Assembly (NCBI GenBank): GCA_905205975.1
Contig: CAJLFQ010000002.1
Location: 10,134 to 74,133, forward strand
Length of the DNA stretch: 64,000 nt
Direction of reading: 5' to 3'
From: an uncultured Eubacteriales bacterium
Lineage (GTDB): Bacteria; Bacillota; Clostridia; Oscillospirales; QAMX01
The position numbers were made by a program, and so were the translations under genes. Below, one piece after another: positions 1,951-49,473 of the stretch. Numbering within the stretch: position 1 is the stretch's first letter; each line of letters begins with the position of its first letter. The notes beneath the pieces were generated by a model. The model had not been told where the DNA came from. It saw only the letters and a list, made by a program, of their open reading frames with translations, and ran no database searches.

Positions 1951-2050
1951 GCGTGTCGGGGGTAAGTTGGCGGATAGGCTGCGGGTTTGTGTTGGCGGAT
2001 ATCCGATGGTTGGTGCGTTGGGGGATATACTGCGGGTGTGTTGCGGCGGG
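1951..2050 (+). repeat. Degenerate ~25-nt tandem repeat (family B; unit approx ggcggataggctgcgggtatgtgtt)
   Basis: gcgtgtcgggggtaagttggcggataggctgcgggtttgtgttggcggatatccgatggttggtgcgttgggggatatactgcgggtgtgttgcggcggg. The same unit family recurs at 37412-37507 and, inverted, at 40131-40200, each time directly after a terminator hairpin. Confidence 0.7.
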
Positions 2051-2247
2051 AATCGATTTCCTGCCGCTGTCTTCTGTCGAAAGCGATTGCGCAAATGGCG
2101 CTTTTTTTGTATGATTTTCCATGCGCTTCGCACAAATTCTGATGAAACAGCCGGATTCGTTGCGGTTTTCCATGCTTTTTTTCTGTTTTTGCCCATAATC
2201 AGTTTTCTGATATCGATAAATACAATATTGATATCAAAAAAAGGGAA

Positions 2248-4703: not shown

Positions 4704-5510
4704 ATGGTCATCCACATGATGAAAGTCTGTTACTTCCCGGGCTGTACGCTGCGCACCAAGGCGAAAACGCTTGACGTCTGCGCCAGAAAATCGGCGGAAG
4801 CGCTGGGCGTTGCACTCTGCGAACCGGAAAACTGGCAGTGCTGCGGCGGCGTGTTTGTCAGCGCGAAGGATGAAATCGCAACCAAGCTGTCGAGCGTCCG
4901 CGCGCTGATTGCCGCGCGGGATGCGGGCCAGCCGCTGGTGACCGTCTGCTCGGCCTGTCATAACGTCATCAAGCAGACGAACGACGCCGTGCAGAACGAT
5001 CCGGAATTTGCCGGAAAAGTCAACCGCTATCTCGCGCAGGACAAAACCGGCAGCGCGCCGTATGCGGGCGAAACGAAAGTATACCATTATCTGGAACTCC
5101 TGCGCGATGTCATCGGCTTTGACAAGCTCAAGGCCGCCGTCAAGCATCCGCTGACCGGCCGGAAAATCGCCGCCTATTACGGCTGCATGCTCCTGCGGCC
5201 CGGCAAGGTCATGCAGTTTGACGACGTGGAAAATCCGCGCATTCTCGAAGATTTTATCCGCGCGCTGGGCGCGGAACCGGTCGTTTCGCCGATGCGGAAC
5301 GAATGCTGCGGCGGATACGTCGCGCTGGAAGACCCGGCTTCCGCCCAAAAGAAGAGCCGTGCCGTCAGCGAAAGCGCAGCGGCGCACGGCGCAGAGGAAA
5401 TCGTGACGGCTTGTCCGCTCTGCCGCTACAACCTTGTGAAAAATGACAGCCCTGTCCCTGTCGTATACTTTACCGAGCTGCTGGCGGAAGCGCTCGGCGT
5501 CGAACTCTGA
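4704..5510 (+). CDS. hdrB: HdrB-like CCG-domain protein (heterodisulfide reductase B / SdhE / TfrB-type)
   Basis: Two CCG motifs: C..QCCGG-(34 aa)-CSAC and C..ECCGG..CPLC. The start could instead be ATG 4716. Confidence 0.85.
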   Translation: MVIHMMKVCYFPGCTLRTKAKTLDVCARKSAEALGVALCEPENWQCCGGVFVSAKDEIATKLSSVRALIAARDAGQPLVTVCSACHNVIKQTNDAVQNDPEFAGKVNRYLAQDKTGSAPYAGETKVYHYLELLRDVIGFDKLKAAVKHPLTGRKIAAYYGCMLLRPGKVMQFDDVENPRILEDFIRALGAEPVVSPMRNECCGGYVALEDPASAQKKSRAVSESAAAHGAEEIVTACPLCRYNLVKNDSPVPVVYFTELLAEALGVEL

Positions 5511-16370: not shown

Positions 16371-16440
16371 GCGCAGCCGACGCGGCGTACCCGCGAAAAG
16401 TGAGACAAATCATAGAAACGCAAATCGTTCAAGCGTCCGA

Positions 16441-16480
16441 AAGGGCCTGCTGTCTGTGCATGACGGTGGGCCCTTTTGTT
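16441..16480 (+). terminator. Probable terminator after the hydrogenase gene
   Basis: aagggcc...ggccctt stem followed by ttgttt. The loop is long, so this is only moderate. Confidence 0.45.
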
Positions 16481-16535
16481 TGGCCGTGATTCTGCAGCTG
16501 CGGGGATGCTGGGTGGATATCGTTTGTGAGGTGAA

Positions 16536-16623
16536 CCTCGGTGGATACGCAAAGTTCCACCTCATCCGGTTCTCTGCTTTTCGGGGAAAAGCAGAGAACC
16601 ACCTTCCCCTCATAGGGGAAGGC
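16536..16623 (+). repeat. Nested-hairpin intergenic repeat, family A, variant 1
   Basis: cctcggtggatacgcaaagttccacctcatccgg + 15-bp hairpin ggttctctgcttttc/gaaaagcagagaacc + hairpin ccttcccct-cat-aggggaagg. Confidence 0.85.
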
Positions 16624-16708
16624 TTATTGCCTGCCGGCATGGCCGCTGGCTTTTCATCTGCGGGGTGTGTTCGCTTCGTTCGTAGGGAAGGCAAAGGGAA
16701 TGGAACAA

Positions 16709-16790
16709 GCCTTCCCCTGAGTAGGGGAAGGTGGCGAAAACGATTTTCCGCGAAAATCGCTTTCGCCGGATGCGGTCGAAGTTTCCCCGC
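16709..16790 (-). repeat. Nested-hairpin intergenic repeat, family A, variant 2 (inverted relative to 16536)
   Basis: gccttcccctgagtaggggaagg + ggcgaaaacgattttc/gaaaatcgctttcgcc hairpin + ggatgcggtcgaa. Confidence 0.85.
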
Positions 16791-16848
16791 GCGCCGCGGT
16801 ACAGACGAAGCGGCTTTTCGCGCTTTTGCACAAAAAACGACAGAGCTG

Positions 16849-16877
16849 TTGACAGAATCTCTTTTTTATGGTATCAT
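16849..16877 (+). promoter_or_regulatory. sigma-A type promoter for the ABC transporter genes
   Basis: TTGACA, 17-nt spacer, TATCAT, with TGg immediately upstream (extended -10). Confidence 0.6.
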
Positions 16878-16960
16878 TGTAGCCGGATAAATTGCCCTGG
16901 CCGATTTGCCGGGAAATATGCGCCGGAAGAAGATTTCCCGGCGGAAGAGGGTTCAAAAAT

Positions 16961-18639: not shown

Positions 18640-18795
18640 TTCCCCGGCGGATTTGGCGGATTTGCCTTTTCCCCGGCGGATCCCCGCGCTTCCACCTCAT
18701 CCGGTTCTTTGTTTTTCCCCGAAAAGCAAAGAACCACCTTCCCCTCGTAGGGGAAGGCTTTGATTCGCCGCAGCGCTTTCCTTCGCTTGCAGTCC
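18640..18795 (+). repeat. Family A variant 1 repeat, extended ~150-nt form
   Basis: Core ttccacctcatccggttctttgtttttccccgaaaagcaaagaaccaccttcccctcgtaggggaaggc (18690-18758). The flanks match the inverted copy at about 37695-37850 (ggatccccg.., gcgaaggaaagcgct..). Confidence 0.8.
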
Positions 18796-18800
18796 ACCTG

Positions 18801-19850
18801 CTACTTGGTCGTGGGTTCCAGCGTCGTACCGGGGTAATAGTGCGACAGAATGGCGGCGGCGCTGTGGCCGTCGGCGGCCATGACTTTCGCGCCGTTCTGG
18901 CTCATGCCGACGCCGTGACCATACCCTTCTGTTTCAAACCGGATGCGTCCCGCGCCTTGGGTCACGGTAAACGAGGCGCTGCGCAGACCGCAGAGCGCGC
19001 GCAGTTCGCCGCCGGTGACCGTGACGCCGCCGACGCGGATCGTCTGCACCAAACCGCCCGCCGTGCGGACTGCGTCGGTGAACCAGTCGGATCCGTCGCG
19101 CAGCACGGCCGACGGATGGCGGCTGCAAAACATCTGACGGAATTCGGCGCAGTCGAATACGACGGCATTCCGCCAGCCGTTCAGCGCGGATTCGCCAGCC
19201 GGTGCGTCGACGCTGACGAGATACGGAACTTCGCCGCCCCAGACGTCGGCGCTGCTGTTCGTCGTCCGCCCGGACATCGCGTGAAACACAGCAAGGATCG
19301 GCTCGCCTGCATAGGTGAGAATCTGCCCGGATGTGTCGGCGACGGCATTTCGGATGCGGTCGGCGTATGTCTGCCCCTGCTCGCCCCAGCCTGCCGCCAG
19401 CGCGTTGAGGTCGGCCAGCGCGCAGCAGTGCGCCGGGTTATCGCAGAGGACAGCCGCTTCATGCGCGGAAACCGGGTGTGCCGCGCGGTAGCAGATGTAT
19501 GTCCGCGCGGCGATGGCCTGCGCCTTGAGCGCCTCCGCCGGGTAAAGCGCCGGCATTTCGGCGGCGACAATGGCGGCGACGGTCTCGTCCAGCGTCATCT
19601 GCGTCTCGACGCCGTCCACCAGCACGGTGATGCGCGAAGTGGTTTCCGGCGCTTGGATGGGCTCTCCGGTATCCGCCGGTTCATCGGAAGCAGCGGGTGG
19701 TGCAACGGTGCTGGCGGAGGCGGCCGGCGTGCTGGGGGATGCAGTTGTTTCCAGTGCGGGCAGCGCGTCTGCCCGGCTGGAAAAGATGGCCAGCGGCAGC
19801 GCAAAGGATGCCGCCAGCAGGCATAAGGTGAAAATCAGGCTTCGTTTCAT
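18801..19850 (-). CDS. spoIID: SpoIID/LytB-domain stage II sporulation protein D
   Basis: Signal peptide; ALKAQAIAARTY, AVFHAMSGGRTTNS-like, VPYLVSVD and GYGHGVGMSQNGA motifs. Confidence 0.85.
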   Translation of the reverse strand: MKRSLIFTLCLLAASFALPLAIFSSRADALPALETTASPSTPAASASTVAPPAASDEPADTGEPIQAPETTSRITVLVDGVETQMTLDETVAAIVAAEMPALYPAEALKAQAIAARTYICYRAAHPVSAHEAAVLCDNPAHCCALADLNALAAGWGEQGQTYADRIRNAVADTSGQILTYAGEPILAVFHAMSGRTTNSSADVWGGEVPYLVSVDAPAGESALNGWRNAVVFDCAEFRQMFCSRHPSAVLRDGSDWFTDAVRTAGGLVQTIRVGGVTVTGGELRALCGLRSASFTVTQGAGRIRFETEGYGHGVGMSQNGAKVMAADGHSAAAILSHYYPGTTLEPTTK

Positions 19851-24885: not shown

Positions 24886-24917
24886 ACCGCGAACCGCGCG
24901 TCAAACGCAAACCAATC

Positions 24918-24953
24918 AAATGCCCCGTCAGACGTGGTCTGACGGGGCATTTC
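24918..24953. terminator. Bidirectional terminator between rny and the CBS gene
   Basis: aaatgccccgtcagac-gtg-gtctgacggggcattt. Confidence 0.8.
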
Positions 24954-25002
24954 TGCGCTTTGCAGAGCGGGCGGAAGAGCAGCCGGGGGAAAAACAGGTT
25001 TC

Positions 25003-36004: not shown

Positions 36005-37363
36005 ATGCTGAACAGCTTTGACATTCTCGAAACCATCAAAATGATCTCCGACGAGCATCTGGACATCCGCACCATCACGATGGGCATCAGCCTGTCGGAC
36101 TGTGCCGCGGAAAGCGTTAAACGCTGCGCGGAGAAGATTTACGACAAAATCACCCATCGGGCGGAACATCTGGTCGAAGTCGGAAACCGGATCGAAAAAG
36201 AATACGGCATTCCGGTCATCAACAAGCGCATTTCGGTCACGCCGATTGCGCTCGTCGCAGCAGCCTGCGCGGAGACGGACGACACGCCGCTGGCGGAAGC
36301 GCTCGACCGTGCGGCGCAGACCGTCGGCATCAACTTCATCGGCGGGTTTTCCGCGCTGGTGCACAAGGGCATGACGGAATCCGACCGGCGGCTGATTGAG
36401 TCGATCCCGTCGGCGCTGGCGGCGACGGAGCGGGTCTGCTCCTCGGTCAACGTCGCGACCACCCGTGCAGGCATCAATATGGATGCCGTTGCAAAAATGG
36501 GCGAAATTATGAAAGAAACCGCCTATCTGACACGCGAAAGTGATTCTTTCGGCTGCGCAAAGCTCGTCGTGTTTGCCAACAGCCCGGAGGATAACCCGTT
36601 CATGGCGGGCGCGTATCACGGCGTCGGCGAAGCGGAGTGCGCCATCAACGTCGGCGTTTCCGGGCCGGGCGTCGTTCGGGCGGCCATCGAACGCCACGGC
36701 GCGATGAACCTGACGGAGCTGGCGGACGTCATCAAGAAGACGGCGTTCAAAATCACGCGCATGGGTCAGCTGGTCGCCTATGAGGCCTCCCAGCGGCTGG
36801 GTGCGAACTTCGGCATTGTCGACCTGTCGCTGGCGCCGACGCCTGCGGTCGGCGATTCCGTCGCCCGGATTTTGGAGGCGATGGGGCTGGAAACGTGCGG
36901 ATGCCACGGGACGACGGCGTGTCTGGCCATGCTGAACGACGCCGTCAAGAAGGGCGGCGTCATGGCGTCGTCTCATGTCGGCGGGCTGTCCGGGGCATTC
37001 ATCCCGGTCAGCGAGGACATGGGCATGGTTGAAGCGGCGCAGAAAGGCGTGCTGACGATCGATAAGCTCGAAGCGATGACGGCGGTCTGCTCGGTTGGGC
37101 TGGATATGATCGCCGTGCCGGGCGATACGCCGGCGGAAGTGCTTTCGGCGATCATCGCGGATGAAATCTCCATCGGCGTCGTCAACAATAAGACGACGGC
37201 GGTGCGTCTGATTCCGGTGTACGGCAAGACGGTCGGCGACAGCATCTCGTTCGGCGGTCTGTGGGGCGAAGCGCCCATCATGCCGGTGCATCGGGAATCG
37301 CCGGCGGTGTTCATTCACCGCGGCGGCCGCATCCCGGCGCCGATCCACAGCCAGCGGAACTGA
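36005..37363 (+). CDS. UPF0210/DUF711 (PFL-like) family protein
   Basis: [25 protein letters not shown]-terminus typical of the family. GGAGGG RBS before ATG 36005. The last codons (HSQRN*) lie inside the inverted repeat. Confidence 0.85.
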
Positions 37364-37374
37364 TTTGACATGCG

Positions 37375-37411
37375 GAATCCCCGGACTGCCAAAGGCAATC
37401 CGGGGATTTTT
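37375..37411 (+). terminator. Terminator of the UPF0210 gene (inside the left repeat arm)
   Basis: gaatccccggactgcc-aaa-ggcaatccggggatt followed by tttt. Confidence 0.8.
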
Positions 37412-37507
37412 GCGTGTGGTTGGGGGAGGCTGCGGGTGTGCGTTGGGGGTAGGCGCTGCGGGTATGTGTTGGCGGATAGGCTGCGGGTATGTGGCGGCGG
37501 ATAGGCT
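37412..37507 (+). repeat. Family B ~25-nt degenerate tandem repeat (about 4 units)
   Basis: gcgtgtggttgggggaggctgcgggtgt / gcgttgggggtaggcgctgcgggtatgt / gttggcggataggctgcgggtatgt / ggcggcggataggct. Confidence 0.75.
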
Positions 37508-37509
37508 AT

Positions 37510-37582
37510 GTTCGACCTCATCCGGCGAAAGCGATTTTCGGTGAAAATCGTTTTCGCCACCTTCCCCTGCTCAGGGGAAGGC
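37510..37582 (+). repeat. Family A variant 2 repeat
   Basis: gttcgacctcatccggcgaaagcgattttcggtgaaaatcgttttcgccaccttcccctgctcaggggaaggc. Confidence 0.85.
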
Positions 37583-37694
37583 GTTGGTAGTTTCCCGCTG
37601 GCTCTCCTGTGTGCGAAGTGTGAACATCGGGTACGGAATGAGCCAGCGGGCTTTCCAAAGGAACGCCAGCTGGCGTTGGCGGTTCCCCAATGTT

Positions 37695-37850
37695 CCCGCA
37701 GCGGACGAAGGAAAGCGCTTCGGCGAATTGGAGCCTTCCCCTACGAGGGGAAGGTGGTTCTTTGCTTTTCCCCGAAAAGCAAAGAACCGGATGAGGTGGA
37801 AGATCGGGGATCCGCCGGGGAAAAGGCGAATCTGCCAAATCAGCTGTCCC
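37695..37850 (-). repeat. Family A variant 1 repeat, extended form (inverted)
   Basis: Core gccttcccctacgaggggaaggtggttctttgcttttccccgaaaagcaaagaaccggatgaggtggaag (37733-37802). The flanks match 18640-18795 in reverse complement. Confidence 0.8.
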
Positions 37851-39926: not shown

Positions 39927-40200
39927 GCCGAACGCATTGGATATTGAATCAGCCAGCAGGCCTTTGCCCGCCTTCACCCGCAGAAGAACCATCGGGGAAC
40001 CGCCAGAGCCTTCCCTTCGCCCGCAGCGGGAGCCAGCGGGGGAGCCGCCAGAGCCTTCCCCTGAGAAGGGGAAGGCGGCGAAAACGATTTTCGCTGAAAA
40101 TTGTTTTCGCCGGATGAGATCGAACACAGCGTATCCGCCGACATATACCCGCAGCGCCTCCCCCAACGCACGCCCGCAGCCTGCCTCCAACCACACGCAA

Positions 40201-40235
40201 GAATCCCCGGATTGCCTTTGGCAGTCCGGGGATTC
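40201..40235 (-). terminator. Terminator of the metallophosphoesterase gene (inside the right repeat arm)
   Basis: Same hairpin as 37375-37411, in reverse complement. Confidence 0.75.
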
Positions 40236-40246
40236 CGCATTTCAAA

Positions 40247-41374
40247 TCAGTTCTGCTGGCTGTGGAGCGATGCCGGATCCGGGCAGGCGCGCGCGGTCAC
40301 GCGGCCGTTCTCAGCGGTCAGCACGCCGCCGACGTAGGTTTCGCCGCCGTCATGGCGGAAGGCAGGAATCGACAGCACCGCCGTTGGAAAGTTGGCGTCG
40401 CATCTGTCCGGCGCATGCGGGGGAACCTCATAAACCGTGTGCATATGCCCGGCAAGCAGCAGCTGGATGTTCATCCGGTTCAAAAGGCTCGTCCACGTTT
40501 CGTAGATGTCATCCGCCGGGTTGAACGGCGCGGGCATTTTTTCGACGAACGGCATATGGCAGAAGGCGATTCGGTAAAGCACGCCGGGCGCATCGTATTC
40601 CTGTTCCGCCCGGGCGAGCAGCGATTCCAAAAACTGCGTTTCCCGCCGGCGGAAGGCGCCGCAGTCGATGACGCCGCCGTATTCGACGTGGCTGTCCGCT
40701 TTGTCTTCGCCGCAGTCGAGGACAAGCCCCCACAGCGGACCCTGCTGGAAGGTGTAGAACGTTTCCCGGCGTCCGCCGCGGCATACCGTCGGGATATAAG
40801 CGGGCAGCACGGTCGCCGCTGCGCCGCGCATATCGTGGTTCCCGCGGGCGTTGATGACCGGGCGTTCGCCGTGTACGGCGCCGGCAGACAGGCGGAACGC
40901 CGTATCGAACTGATCCGTGGAATCGCTGGAGCTGTTGAGGTCGCCGTTCAGAAGCAGGATGTCGCAGCCGCCGGACGCTTCGAATGTCTGCAGCGCCGAC
41001 TCGACGCGGCCGTGCGTATCCGCAAACTGGAACAGGCGGAAGGAATCGCCGGACAGCGGGGTAAACCGGTAGGTTTTCCGGACAGTTTCAACACCGACCG
41101 GACGGTTGGAAAGCATTTCCTCATACGCGGCGAACACGACCGTGTATGCGCCGGCTTCAGAGAGCGCCGCGCCGGGGACCGGAATTTTGTGGACGCGCCC
41201 ATACTGGAGCAGGCCGCATTCCTCATCGGTGAAGCGTTCGCCGGCGATTTCAATCCAGCCGATGCCCTTGCGCGCCGTGAGGAAAATGATCTGGTAGTCA
41301 TGCCCGACGGCAAAGACAGAGGGGTCAAAGCGCAGGTCGCCGGCCGCTTCCGGCGTGGTGTGAGCTTCTTGCAT
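40247..41374 (-). CDS. Metallophosphoesterase (calcineurin-like/purple-acid-phosphatase-like)
   Basis: FADTHG, LLLNGDL, ARGNHD and AGHMH motifs. Start at MQEAHTT (41374). The last codons (HSQQN*) lie inside the inverted repeat. Confidence 0.8.
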   Translation of the reverse strand: MQEAHTTPEAAGDLRFDPSVFAVGHDYQIIFLTARKGIGWIEIAGERFTDEECGLLQYGRVHKIPVPGAALSEAGAYTVVFAAYEEMLSNRPVGVETVRKTYRFTPLSGDSFRLFQFADTHGRVESALQTFEASGGCDILLLNGDLNSSSDSTDQFDTAFRLSAGAVHGERPVINARGNHDMRGAAATVLPAYIPTVCRGGRRETFYTFQQGPLWGLVLDCGEDKADSHVEYGGVIDCGAFRRRETQFLESLLARAEQEYDAPGVLYRIAFCHMPFVEKMPAPFNPADDIYETWTSLLNRMNIQLLLAGHMHTVYEVPPHAPDRCDANFPTAVLSIPAFRHDGGETYVGGVLTAENGRVTARACPDPASLHSQQN

Positions 41375-41498: not shown

Positions 41499-41554
41499 GT
41501 AAACATAGAAACGGATGCAGTTTCTGTATCCGACCATTGAAAGGGAGGCATAAC

Positions 41555-42310
41555 ATGAACAATTTTGATTTCGAAGCGGACTTTGCTGCGGCTGCCGCAG
41601 GCGTTGCGGGGACGGTGCTGGTGCTTTGGCTGATTGCGCTGGCGGCCGGCATTCTGATGATCATCGCGCAGTGGCGGATTTTCAGCAAAGCGGGCGAACC
41701 CGGCTGGGCTTCGCTGATCCCCATCTACAACTTATACGTCCTCTATAAAATCACATGGGGCAGCGGCATTCGCTTCCTGCTCCTGCTGATCCCGCTGTAC
41801 AACATCATCCTCGCCATCCAGACGAATATCCGGCTTGCCCGCGCCTTCGGCAAGGACGACGGGTTTGCCGTCGGGCTGATCTTTCTGCCCAGTATTTTCA
41901 TGCTGATCCTCGGCTTCGGCGGCGCGCAGTACTGCGGCGTGCCGGGCGTTTATCAGCAGCCCTACGGACAGCCGTACGGTCAGCCGTACGGACAGCCGCA
42001 GCAGCCCTACGGACAGCCGCAGCAGCCCTACGGACAGCCGCAGCAGCCCTACGGACAGCCGCAGCAGCCCAACGCCCAGCAGTGGACGTATAACGTCCAG
42101 CAGCAGCCGCAGCAGCAGACATACGCACAGCCGCAGCAGCAGACATACGCACAGCCGCAGCAGCAGACATACACACAGCCGCAGCAGCAGCCGTCCGGCC
42201 AGCCGCAGCAGCAGCCGCAGCAGCCGGCGTTCTGCCCGAACTGCGGTCAGGCGCTCGACCCGAATGTGAAATTCTGCCCGGGCTGCGGACAGCCGACCGG
42301 CAAGGCGTAA
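41555..42310 (+). CDS. DUF5684-like membrane protein with Q/P/Y-rich repeat region and C-terminal zinc-ribbon
   Basis: TM region with IFSKAGEPGWASLIPIYNLYVLYKI, then QPYG / QPQQPYG / QPQQQTYA repeats, then CPNCGQ..CPGCGQ. gggagg RBS before ATG 41555. Confidence 0.8.
   Translation: MNNFDFEADFAAAAAGVAGTVLVLWLIALAAGILMIIAQWRIFSKAGEPGWASLIPIYNLYVLYKITWGSGIRFLLLLIPLYNIILAIQTNIRLARAFGKDDGFAVGLIFLPSIFMLILGFGGAQYCGVPGVYQQPYGQPYGQPYGQPQQPYGQPQQPYGQPQQPYGQPQQPNAQQWTYNVQQQPQQQTYAQPQQQTYAQPQQQTYTQPQQQPSGQPQQQPQQPAFCPNCGQALDPNVKFCPGCGQPTGKA
41957..42226 (+). repeat. In-frame coding tandem repeats (12-nt x3, 21-nt x3.5, 24-nt x3)
   Basis: cagccgtacgg(a/t) units. cagccgcagcagccctacgga at 41993, 42014 and 42035. 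cagccgcagcagcagacatacgca at 42104, 42128 and 42152. Confidence 0.9.
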
Positions 42311-49206: not shown

Positions 49207-49270
49207 AAAAAAACCTCCTGAAACAGGATTTTGAAACATGTGGCAGCGCGCGGATGCAGGGGGTGGGGTA

Positions 49271-49360
49271 CCTCGGTGGATACGCAAAGTTCCACCTCAT
49301 CCGGCGAAAGCAATTTTCACGGAAAATTGTTTTCGCCACCTTCCCCTGCATAGGGGAAGG
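49271..49360 (+). repeat. Family A variant 2 repeat
   Basis: ctcggtggatacgcaaagttccacctcatccggcgaaagcaattttcacggaaaattgttttcgccaccttcccctgcataggggaaggc. Confidence 0.85.
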
Positions 49361-49473
49361 CTTTGGCGCTTGTCGGATGTGTCCGATGCGCACAAAGGCG
49401 ATGTGCCTTTGTGCGGTCATGAAATCGGCGGTTTCAAAAAACCGTCCTGTTTTTTGCACAGGACGGTTTTTGA

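Follow-up and report, generated by a model that had tools for sequence, protein, structure and literature searches.

The DNA analysed here, referred to as the window, is a 64-kb stretch of a contig from an uncultured Eubacteriales bacterium. The called genes between positions 4946 and 60865 either belong to housekeeping Pfam families or match none, in agreement with the preliminary description, which had found no RAYT or IS200-type transposase in the window. That description had also reported at least seven intergenic copies of a three-part element, consisting of a box, a 15-16 bp hairpin and a second hairpin. Indeed, a covariance model built from 15 units recovered exactly seven full-length units at the places reported, all three parts being present in each, with scores of 87-107 bits compared to 16 bits for the next best match. 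None of the seven overlaps a called gene. The next best match (24891-24979) was not counted as a member; it overlaps a 35-nt palindrome (24918-24952) just 3′ of the RNase Y gene, which is probably the terminator of that gene. The units lie on both strands, at a density of about one per 9 kb.

Each unit consists, in this order, of the box (TTCSACCTCATCCGG; 12-15 nt), the 15-16 bp hairpin (hp1) and a 9 bp hairpin (hp2; CCTTCCCCT-N3-4-AGGGGAAGG), for a length of about 70-90 nt (88-91 nt by the covariance model). hp1 is a perfect or near-perfect palindrome. Exact hp2 sequences occur seven times in the window vs. 0 in shuffles. The box, with one mismatch at most, occurs six times vs. 0.45 expected; one of these matches (28793, minus strand) is not part of any unit, and the two units falling outside this set carry GACCGCATCCGG and GATCTCATCCGG. 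Both hairpins were predicted in 7/7 units folded as single-stranded DNA (z = -5.2 to -8.8), unit 1 folding at -31.4 kcal/mol (z = -8.75).

The positions first given for the copies were correct, but the repeated material runs well outside them, to as much as 136-250 nt between some pairs. It takes in G-rich 25-nt arrays of GGYGGATA, which lie optionally 5′ of a unit, optional tails 3′ of it, and also terminators and a promoter (Table 1). Similarly, there are seven units but not seven separate copies: units are arranged as singlets or, equally commonly, as convergent doublets, and the convergent pairs at 16540-16795 (units 1 and 2) and 37496-37816 (units 4 and 5) each form one palindromic composite, which we call doublet 1 and doublet 2. 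The unit 4 region resembles 40276-40053 in two segments, one of 151 nt (91.4% identity) and one of 103 nt (89.3%). The unit 3 region resembles 37706-37841 (136 nt at 91%), and unit 5 is 95.7% identical to unit 1 over 70 nt. The 35-nt 5′ flank plus box of unit 7 matches that of unit 1 perfectly (16535-16569 = 49270-49304, 100%), although hp1 differs. GGYGGATA was matched 12 times in the window vs. 2.5 expected, with 8/12 matches inside 25-nt arrays, and repeat finding identified the orphan array as the same module that precedes units 1, 4, 6 and 7. The tail of doublet 1 (GGCTTATTGCCTGCCGGCATGGCCGCTGGCTT) was also found in contigs L147 and L158, where L-numbers designate metagenomic contigs representing strains, other loci or related species.

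Table 1. Repeat units and associated modules in the 64-kb window (CM, covariance model; A and B, forms of hp1).
Feature	Position (CM core)	Strand	Composition	CM score (bits)	Setting
Unit 1	16540-16627	+	box TTCCACCTCATCCGG, hp1 form A (GGTTCTCTGCTTTTC/GAAAAGCAGAGAACC), hp2	96.7	left half of doublet 1; 3′ of hydrogenase terminator and two GGTGGATA units (16512, 16540)
Doublet 1 spacer and tail modules	16628-16704	no strand	between the two hp2 copies (10-strain-contig alignment)		together with hp2, hp2′ and hp1B, the 167 nt absent from short alleles
Unit 2	16705-16795	-	box TTCGACCGCATCCGG, hp1 form B (GGCGAAAGCGATTTTC/GAAAATCGTTTTCGCC, one G·T), hp2	96.9	right half of doublet 1; about 55 nt upstream of predicted permease promoter (16849-16877; TTGACA-17-TATCAT with TG)
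Unit 3	18640-18785 (18675-18762)	+	form A, T·G mismatch, CCC loop	87.5	between ABC-ATPase terminator and convergent SpoIID stop; GGCGGAT-type tandem stretch 5′, tail common to unit 5 3′
Unit 4	37334-37587 (37496-37586)	+	form B	104.7	left half of doublet 2; left arm of ~250-nt inverted repeat with 40046-40276; co-repeated with last 30 nt of DUF711 gene, DUF711 terminator and 25-nt array (37427-37507, 3.2 copies; TRF period 25)
Unit 5	37706-37841 (37729-37816)	-	form A, box TTCCACC, tail and 5′ flank	92.2	right half of doublet 2; upstream of glyoxalase-gene promoter repeat
Unit 6	40046-40276 (40049-40139)	-	form B, A·C mismatch, box TTCGATC	96.9	accompanied by array, terminator and copied DUF711 gene end
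Unit 7	49270-49368 (49275-49365)	+	form B	106.9	267-nt gap between MBOAT gene and same-strand 640-aa gene; gap constant in 10 strain contigs
Orphan array	1957-2059	+	GGCGGATA-type 25-nt units, without box or hairpins		after terminator 1914-1947

Both of the hp1 forms originally distinguished in the window are present, together with the paired changes named for them (CTCTGC/GCAGAG vs. CTTTGC/GCAAAG and GCGATT/AATCGT vs. GCAATT/AATTGT). At least seven forms, one of them an A/B hybrid, exist when other loci are included. In the alignment of 15 units, where most of the hp1 covariation is the A-versus-B split, 97.9% of hp1 cells were paired and 8/16 pairs changed on both sides; the covariation score was reached by 0/500 shuffles, and slid controls were 48-64% paired. 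The A-versus-B split itself may correspond to one replacement event. Contrary to the initial description, the stem is not kept by paired changes in every copy, unit 3 having an uncompensated T·G and unit 6 an uncompensated A·C. Globally, mismatches in hp1 show no strand bias, with six G·T vs. nine A·C on the unit strand, and hp1 class is not linked to box type.

The suggestion that selection acts on structure fits hp1, which covaries, but not hp2, which is conserved as a sequence with zero compensatory changes and whose pairing is lost in copies found independently of it. The hp2 stem is invariant around its loop, as initially described, but part of the loop variation is inversion rather than free change (CGT vs. 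ACG). The hp1 loop is inverted in the same way (GGG vs. CCC between close copies), and an AGC vs. GCT flip occurs within a single tandem array. The box and hp2 are nearly invariant while hp1 and the 15 nt upstream differ by >30% between copies, a conservation that is inflated to the extent that copies outside the window were found partly via hp2 or the model. The 18-nt hp2 palindrome is not diagnostic of the family: unrelated genomes from many phyla contain it by chance, in 119 stretches or more, and the box was absent from all 119 listed. The covariation points to a constraint on hp1 that relates to its being a palindrome. The compensatory changes in hp1 could also come from DNA-level palindrome correction or cassette exchange instead of selection on a fold.

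Fold selection would nonetheless be expected to maintain hp1 if the units were transcribed as terminators, mRNA stabilisers or small RNAs, and the hp1 covariation and very stable predicted folds are compatible with this idea. In units 3 and 5, hp2 and the T-rich hp1 form A arm that comes after it resemble a terminator read in the hp2-to-hp1 direction; a terminator consensus scan, which found no more sites in total than in shuffles, flagged hp2 in these two units (in unit 3 also followed by CTTTGATT), and form-B units have no T-rich arm. For SpoIID, unit 3 is the only terminator-like structure downstream of the stop, and unit 7 is located between two same-strand genes, which may be co-transcribed. 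However, the units occur in both orientations relative to neighbouring genes, usually past a separate terminator; the hp1 mismatches lack polarity, hp2 has no compensatory changes and the loop inversions indicate events at the DNA level. The whole window gave 0 matches to Rfam at gathering thresholds, and a sensitive search of 16380-16900 (E ≤ 1) only a chance miRNA match at E 0.5. On grounds of orientation, mismatch symmetry, flipped loops and the lack of an Rfam match, we rejected an RNA element as the main reading, together with the RNA option of the structural selection first proposed; we consider it improbable and prefer a DNA-level explanation.

DNA-level events were also apparent in the comparison of strains. 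All seven sites were occupied in every strain contig examined, neither a filled-versus-empty site nor a polymorphic insertion being seen in the 20 or more strain contigs compared, and all strain differences seen are recombinational. Similarity between copies ends at module borders, as where 35 nt are 100% identical up to CCGG and hp1 then diverges, and several breakpoints fall exactly at the end of CATCCGG. In an alignment of 10 strain contigs, the junctions of the short doublet 1 alleles were of two kinds, implying two independent deletions: L121, L122 and L127 are reduced to box-hp1A-box′, and L128 has a chimeric hp1, A on the left and B on the right, joined in the TTTTC/GAAAA core. The tandem units 5′ of unit 3 number 1, 2 or 3 depending on the strain, and a 309-nt doublet at another locus is present once or three times (L131 vs. 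L162, respectively). The native DUF711 gene end and terminator have been copied with unit 4 onto a metallophosphoesterase gene, which now ends …HSQQN-stop; orthologues that are 74-94% identical to the DUF711 protein retain its C-terminus, …IHSQRN.

In L169, the 3′ ends of the DUF711 and hydrogenase genes are joined via a B unit. This is the junction that an inversion of ~20.8 kb between units 2 and 4 would be expected to produce. These two units have no exact word of more than 26 nt in common, which is below 31, taken to be the word length used to assemble the Logan contigs. A possible rearrangement at the box/hp1 border in L145 was kept as a weak lead only, and could be an assembly chimera, since units 1 and 7 have an exact 35-mer in common; both junctions, L169 and L145, are represented by a single metagenomic contig each. 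The units are thus places where strains delete and duplicate DNA and, probably, invert it, bearing out the suggestion that they serve as recombination substrates.

Further units were found at at least 10 other gut-metagenome loci (L131/L162, L132, L133, L138, L157 and L158 with two sites each, L163, L147 and L145), and diverged copies in L130 and L144. The doublet loci number 11 overall, two of them in the window, and all 11 combine two different hp1 classes, which fits a scenario where homotypic doublets delete themselves. In 4/11 the doublet is compact, with one shared hp2; compact doublets measure about 130-150 nt and are bounded by the 15-nt inverted repeat TTCCACCTCATCCGG…CCGGATGAGGTSGAA (L138, L158, L131, L163). 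A TTCC box is paired with a TTCG box in 10/11 doublet loci (binomial P about 0.006 if the loci are independent), so that the outer stem carries a constant C·C/G·G mismatch.

No units were seen in the stretches examined of three related species (L168, DUF711 94% identical in amino acids; L164/L165, 85%; L166/L167, 81%). When an empty site that would define the insertion boundary was sought in L164, L166 and L168, the intergenic DNA was unalignable or rearranged, with no readable boundary or target. BLAST searches of 72,556 plasmid and 50,697 phage records returned no related sequence, and the viral contigs searched contained no family match. In the literature searched, neither the box strings nor their reverse complements were found, short hp2-derived strings matched unrelated papers only, and searches on REP/RAYT in Firmicutes and on nested-hairpin repeats or MITEs in Clostridia yielded nothing relevant to the family. 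The seven repeats are members of a real, undescribed family of two-hairpin palindromic DNA repeats in an uncultured human-gut Clostridiales bacterium. Judging from the sequences compared, this family is specific to one lineage of uncultured human-gut Clostridiales and is young: the stretches covered of its closest relatives contain no units. The possibility that the copies are fragments of one known IS or prophage was rejected: they have no coding capacity, no match among the plasmid, phage or viral records, and housekeeping genes alongside.

We propose that the units are DNA-level, non-coding, lineage-specific mosaic palindromic repeats of the REP/BIME kind, i.e. a new family of a known kind, and give this explanation a probability of about 0.6. 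The intergenic location, the singlets and inverted doublets and the positions after terminators all agree with the likeness to REP/BIME elements noted from the outset. A likeness to MITEs had been noted as well. If the units derived from a DDE-transposase IS by internal deletion, the inverted boxes would be its terminal inverted repeats and singlets, which have one end only, would be broken halves, as the box-bounded compact doublets might suggest. No direct repeats were detected by eye around the compact doublets of L138 and L158, however, where the flanks continue the palindrome, and similarity runs outward into the GGYGGATA arrays. The frequency of singlets, together with the lack of a target-site duplication, a filled-versus-empty site or a parent IS in the strains and records searched, makes such an origin very improbable.

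A strict REPIN/RAYT scheme is possible but unlikely. The doublet would in that case be a non-autonomous element, mobilised in folded single-stranded form by an HUH tyrosine transposase whose single-copy gene lies elsewhere in the genome and which nicks beside the box at the foot of hp1. The conserved 5′ motif does adjoin a hairpin in these intergenic, post-terminator doublets and singlets, and the TTCC/TTCG pairing would be expected if the doublet were inherited as one asymmetric unit. The breakpoints at CATCCGG also suit a nicking site, but breakpoints at the edges of conserved segments are expected from ordinary homologous recombination. The roughly 115 kb of the species that were covered, like the surroundings of every copy, contain no Y1/HUH gene, and more generally there is no transposase or recombinase Pfam family in those 115 kb (the window, L157, L158, L163 and smaller pieces) or in the flanks of the diverged copies. 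REP-RAYT systems are, furthermore, known mainly from Proteobacteria, and both the invariable occupancy of the sites and the independence of hp1 class from box type argue against this scheme. In its favour, RAYTs have been proposed to mobilise REPs (PMC3184786). It is decidedly doubtful that we are dealing with a Clostridial counterpart of REPIN-RAYT or attC systems, where a putative HUH or tyrosine recombinase would read the folded asymmetric doublet (box, hp2 and C·C/G·G mismatch) and cut after CATCCGG at the foot of hp1, with hp1 as an exchangeable hairpin cassette; if true, this would be a structure-specific DNA recombination system new to Firmicutes. The ends of IS200/IS605 elements (PATE) were also considered and rejected, as the two ends of such elements do not match each other in inverted orientation, and neither tnpA nor tnpB was found nearby.

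The strict conservation of the box and hp2, as opposed to hp1 and the flanks, could also reflect binding of a host protein, making the units functional sites rather than selfish DNA. A nucleoid-associated protein, topoisomerase or insulator factor would then recognise the box and hp2, leaving hp1 as a palindromic spacer. The regular 25-nt spacing of the GGYGGATA motifs would be consistent with this, and BIMEs are known to bind IHF and gyrase (PMC3184786). However, ascertainment through hp2 exaggerates hp2 conservation, strains tolerate the loss of most of a doublet, and the lack of units in the stretches covered of the nearest relatives suggests that no conserved cellular process depends on the family. 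Host-selected binding sites therefore seem a poor candidate to account for the family.

According to the preferred mosaic-repeat reading, the units would have spread in the past by a trans-acting activity recognising the box and the hairpin at its foot, or else by ectopic recombination or gene conversion carrying flanking DNA along. No transposition is visible within the species, and in the absence of a filled-versus-empty site we infer past transposition from dispersal alone. hp1 would remain self-complementary either because the DNA palindrome is the feature recognised or because it corrects itself. Each hp1 form would consequently be a cassette, compensated internally and flanked by two conserved segments prone to recombination. 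As the modules are their own reverse complements, two copies are at once direct and inverted repeats, with the result that doublets collapse by deletion. The doublets form a collapse series from long doublet to compact doublet with a shared hp2 to box-hp1-box, alongside array slippage, tandem amplification of a doublet and the inversion junction attributed to recombination between inverted units. A host role, as a back-up terminator in the hp2-to-hp1A direction or as insulation between a terminator and the next promoter, may have been co-opted secondarily.

To our knowledge, no REP/BIME-like mosaic repeat family has been described in uncultured gut Clostridia, to which the present family is thus an addition. 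In human gut populations, its units shape the structure of strains: DNA has been deleted or expanded in tandem, a protein C-terminus has been rewritten by a copied gene end, and 21 kb have probably been inverted. The collapse series suggests a simple rule of decay, in which doublets with different hairpins survive while those with identical modules delete themselves. In practical terms, such units break or mis-join metagenome assemblies, and could be used as strain-typing markers.

Several known systems resemble the family in part. Integron attC sites also have conserved outer boxes around a palindrome that is variable in sequence and length, and the fixed TTCC vs. TTCG mismatch in the outer stem of doublets recalls their extrahelical bases, which mark the recombining strand; here, however, we see no RYYYAAC/GTTRRRY cores, integrase or cassette array, and the units have housekeeping genes alongside. 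MITEs such as RUP and Correia elements are similarly compact and intergenic with terminal inverted repeats, but differ by their target-site duplications and parent IS, and the present family by its frequent singlets and similarity past the apparent termini. The NIME of Neisseria are likewise mosaic intergenic arrays with conserved inverted repeats around variable segments; their dRS3 repeats are 20-bp sites used by phage or recombinase systems, whereas the present repeats have no known partner of this sort and, compared by eye, look unrelated in sequence. In NIME, which consist of RS units and dRS3 repeats, the short inverted repeats bracketing the variable segments have been implicated in recombination (PMC3184786). 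The BOX elements of Streptococcus pneumoniae are also modular, non-coding intergenic repeats of a Firmicute, with stable predicted structure, variable module number and no transposase of their own (PMC3184786). In BOX, compared by description only, the modules follow one another in the linear order boxA-boxB(n)-boxC; these elements are transcribed, and an IS is believed to mobilise them. The modules seen here are, by contrast, individually palindromic and form inverted doublets.

The REP/BIME elements of enterobacteria and pseudomonads are palindromes lying in intergenic DNA, their 5′ foot marked by a conserved motif; they occur singly or as inverted pairs within mosaics and are associated with recombination (PMC3184786). 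A REP is a single hairpin formed by an imperfect palindrome of about 20-40 nt, with a conserved tetranucleotide (e.g. GTAG) in front, whereas our units have two hairpins, 70-90 nt and a 12-15 nt box, so that the layout is analogous only; this larger and more complex unit speaks against the reading we favour. The hp1 hairpin is, in addition, exchangeable among at least seven unrelated palindromes, the host is a member of the Clostridiales, and no RAYT is present among the called genes of about 115 kb. Nevertheless, the copies are numerous and extragenic (seven in 64 kb), single or in inverted clusters of different types (11 doublet loci). As in BIMEs, the pairs join two different unit types within mosaics of other short motifs, often after convergent gene ends, at sites of recombination.

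The preliminary description counted seven intergenic copies of a repeat family, each made of a box, a first hairpin of 15-16 bp (hp1) and a second of 9 bp (hp2), and this count held. Seven copies of the hp2 motif (CCTTCCCCT-N3-4-AGGGGAAGG) are present in the window vs. none in 100 shuffles, and six of the box CACCTCATCCGG, at one mismatch or fewer, vs. 0.45 expected; one of these six matches (28793, minus strand) is no unit, and the boxes of two units are somewhat more diverged. A covariance model (R1), built from an alignment of 15 units (A2) and searched unfiltered against all of the window, gave exactly seven full-length matches (87-107 bits); the next best (16 bits) overlaps an ordinary 35-nt palindrome directly 3′ of the RNase Y gene. 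All seven units are intergenic according to GC3-based gene calls, Pfam matches on flanking ORFs and public gene calls of the same region in other strains, and both hairpins are predicted in each by single-stranded DNA folding (z -5.2 to -8.8). Human-gut MAGs (Clostridiales/Eubacteriales) contain proteins identical to the hydrogenase and MBOAT proteins encoded in the window. The locus was also recovered from many gut metagenome assemblies, and the contigs carrying it served as strain comparison.

Repeat units, arrays and hp1 forms (L-numbers are metagenomic loci)
Feature	Position	Strand	Details
Unit 1	16540-16627	+	R1 match; hp1 form A
Unit 2	16705-16795	-	R1 match; hp1 form B
Unit 3	18675-18762	+	R1 match; hp1 form A
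Unit 4	37496-37586	+	R1 match; hp1 form B
Unit 5	37729-37816	-	R1 match; hp1 form A
Unit 6	40049-40139	-	R1 match; hp1 form B
Unit 7	49275-49365	+	R1 match; hp1 form B
Array	37427-37507		25-nt period, 3.2 copies
Orphan array	1957-2059		GGCGGATA-type 25-nt units; without box or hairpin unit
hp1 forms A, B			window units and others
hp1 A/B hybrid			perfect; L133
hp1 form C			GGCATTCGGC…GCCGAATGCC; L144
hp1 form F			GGTCATGCC…GGCATGACC; L158
hp1 forms G and H			short stem, 11-nt loop

The three-part unit stands as first described; the size then given to it does not, as what recurs is longer and more strongly modular. BLAST of the window against itself revealed mosaic similarity: units 3 and 5 (form A) have 136 nt in common at 91% identity, units 4 and 6 (form B) ~250 nt, and units 1 and 7 are 100% identical over a 35-nt 5′ flank and the box, yet differ in hp1 form. 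Tail modules recur downstream of hp2, and a G-rich GGYGGATA-type stretch, the array, usually lies upstream of the box; GGYGGATA has 12 matches in the window (2.5 expected), eight of them within the arrays. The orphan array directly follows a perfect 34-nt palindromic terminator (1914-1947) and is either left over from a unit since deleted or a module in its own right. Arrays between terminator and box are G-rich and C-poor on the gene-read strand ((G-C)/(G+C) +0.3 to +0.6, in the 5′ flanks of units 1, 4, 6 and 7, e.g. 37411-37510, and at L131, L132, L138, L147, L157 and L158), so that a transcript entering antisense from the unit would be rich in C and poor in G, resembling a Rho loading site. 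An insulating role of the arrays is possible.

A metagenome scan with box and hp2 returned 16 loci, L134, L135 and L142 among them being chance matches. Repeats of this type are often miscalled as ORFs; a protein collection was therefore searched with concatenated unit translations, giving 16 clusters, and contigs of several were fetched. Units were found at at least ten loci outside the window; L157 and L158, both with units, come from the same samples as window-type contigs, and diverged versions occur in other high-GC Clostridia (L130, L144). With these copies included, at least seven forms of hp1 can be distinguished.

In strain contig L147 (18489-21392), synteny with the window, from ~42378 down, is lost just past the amidohydrolase gene: in place of the repeat-protein and metallophosphoesterase genes there are an N-acetyltransferase gene, a further unit (19473-19563) and mnmA. 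The window gene at 41537-42310 codes for a Gln/Pro/Tyr-rich protein and is built from 21- and 24-nt tandem repeats (TRF 41954-42216); the called protein length differs among strain contigs (219, 229, 235, 237 and 244 aa), so that the repeat number is polymorphic. The 267-nt gap (49207-49473) that separates the MBOAT gene from a 640-aa gene on the same strand holds unit 7 and a terminator-like hairpin; since the corresponding gap in a paralogous MBOAT operon (L145, 886-924) is 38 nt, unit 7 may be intra-operonic and transcribed. At the right end of the window, a 108-nt direct repeat (61660-61767/63484-63591; 78% identity, 1.8 kb apart) in a minus-strand coding region is possibly an internal duplication in a gene such as an ABC-type ATPase.

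Selection on structure, whether as DNA cruciform or RNA, had been proposed for both hairpins; a structural constraint is supported for hp1 and not for hp2. Over the 15 seed units, pairing in hp1 is 97.9%, and both sides are altered in 8 of its 16 pairs; none of 500 shuffles reached its covariation score, and partner sliding lowers pairing to 48-64%. The signal is mostly the A vs. B split, and within each form we also found true double changes, as originally noted, together with single-step intermediates. The nine pairs of hp2 are invariant in the same units, with no compensatory change, and copies found independently of hp2 lose its pairing (CCTTCCTCT, AGGAGAAGG, or a right arm replaced after AGGGGA). 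Hence hp1 is under a constraint tied to its palindromic character, while hp2 is conserved as sequence.

In 30 distinct hp1 sequences, the non-Watson-Crick cells, read on the unit strand, comprise 6 G·T and 9 A·C; in an RNA under one-strand selection, G·U should be tolerated and A·C avoided. Units stand in both orientations relative to neighbouring genes, usually beyond a separate terminator. The hp1 loops are reverse complements between close copies (GGG in units 1 and 5 vs. CCC in unit 3) and inside a single tandem array (AGC vs. GCT), the expected product of recombination between the arms of a DNA palindrome. Rfam gave no match at gathering thresholds over the whole window, and nothing at E ≤1 for doublet 1, the convergent pair of units 1 and 2. 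These four observations point to a DNA-level element and speak against the RNA option. The units may have host functions, such as back-up termination in the direction from hp2 to form A hp1.

Among 10 strain contigs the hydrogenase-permease spacer has two lengths, 590 nt (that of the window) and 423 nt. Three short alleles of doublet 1 read box-hp1A-box′, without hp2, spacer, hp2′ and hp1B; in L128, the fourth, the hairpin is chimeric, a form A left arm being joined to a form B right arm in the shared TTTTC/GAAAA core. The two different junctions mean that the long form lost sequence in two separate deletions, as opposed to having gained it in one insertion, and the convergent pairs are single composites. 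Doublet size varies from the long type (hp2-spacer-hp2′) to a compact one in which a single hp2 is shared (L138, L158, L131, L163), and the two hp1 are of different classes at all 11 distinct doublet loci. Because a palindrome reads the same on both strands, a doublet with the same hp1 twice would contain a direct repeat and lose what lies between; this collapse is seen in the short alleles and, between the two hp2, in the four compact doublets. We infer that heterotypic doublets are its survivors. One box is TTCCACC and the other TTCGACC at 10 of 11 doublet loci (compared at 16540-16795 and 37496-37816 in the window, and at L131, L133, L138, L145, L157, L158, L162 and L163), only L138 having the same box on both sides (binomial P ~0.006 if loci are independent); if the boxes pair, they would hold a fixed C·C/G·G mismatch. 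The doublet may be inherited as one asymmetric unit.

Strain differences are all recombinational. The proposal that units are recombination substrates was borne out by the doublet 1 deletions, by tandem copy-number changes and by an inversion-type junction. Upstream of unit 3, strains have one, two or three GGCGGAT-type units, and a 309-nt doublet at the sortase/YoaP locus occurs as one copy vs. three tandem copies (L131 vs. L162). L169 joins the DUF711 3′ end (98.4% identity) via a B unit to the reversed hydrogenase 3′ end (99.1%), the junction that would be expected from a ~20.8-kb inversion between units 2 and 4. Since the longest exact word shared by these units is 26 nt and the junction unit has variants of its own, an assembly chimera is unlikely, though the junction is from a single contig. 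In L145, a hydrogenase flank 100% identical to the window up to CCGG is joined to a different unit and different genes, a junction made uncertain by the exact 35-mer common to units 1 and 7.

A ~250-nt inverted repeat (37334-37587/40046-40276) includes the last ten DUF711 codons. The unrelated genes DUF711/UPF0210 (37334-37363) and metallophosphoesterase (40247-40276) have near-identical last ten codons (…IHSQRN-stop vs. …LHSQQN-stop) and the same terminator. As this ten-residue ending is native to DUF711 in all orthologues, the metallophosphoesterase gene owes its …HSQQN end, together with the terminator, the array and unit 6, to an inverted duplication or to gene conversion, its C-terminus having been overwritten by the copied gene end. 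Unit 6, at least, spread along with adjoining host DNA and not through precise transposition. Nearby, a 36-nt promoter-like sequence (TTGCTT…TATGGTATCAT) forms a 97% inverted repeat (37906-37941/39897-39932) before the convergent glyoxalase and 430-aa genes. The segment between the copies is inverted in strain contig L156 (7112-9174), with ~750 nt added that include an 83-aa ORF; in the sister species L168 (2936-4221) the 430-aa gene comes directly after DUF711 and is oriented as in L156, which makes the window arrangement look derived.

We saw no sign of current mobility: all seven window sites are occupied in every strain contig examined, no direct repeats were seen flanking compact doublets, and no similar sequence was found in plasmid, phage and viral collections. 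The reported lack of a RAYT/IS200-type transposase in the window was confirmed, as called genes of ~115 kb of the species and of the neighbours of diverged copies matched no transposase or recombinase family. In related species, gene order upstream of the DUF711 locus is conserved (DUF711 amino-acid identity to the window 94% in L168, 85% in L164/L165 and 81% in L166/L167), and no units were found in the 4.5, 21 and 14.5 kb examined, respectively; in L168, 151 nt separate DUF711 from the homologue of the 430-aa gene. On this evidence, the family expanded after the split from the nearest sampled relative.

The finding is real: the units form a new family, best regarded as mosaic palindromic DNA repeats of the BIME/REP kind, lineage-specific and active as a recombination substrate, without transposition seen at present. 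The box strings and their reverse complements were absent from the papers of the searched literature. Of the two affinities first suggested, the MITE one was rejected (no target duplications, no parent IS, no insertion polymorphism), while the REP/BIME layout fits. REP sequences and BIME clusters, the closest analogues, are extragenic palindromes with a conserved 5′ motif, single or in inverted pairs of different types, embedded in mosaics, often between convergent genes and linked to recombination; RAYT transposases are their proposed mobilisers (PMC3184786). A RAYT-like enzyme is an unlikely mobiliser of the present units, and structure-specific cassette exchange a still more doubtful one. 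BOX elements and neisserial mosaic elements are neighbours in concept. Compared with REP/BIME, the unit here is 70-90 nt with two hairpins, its box is long, its hp1 is exchangeable and its host is a Clostridiales bacterium.
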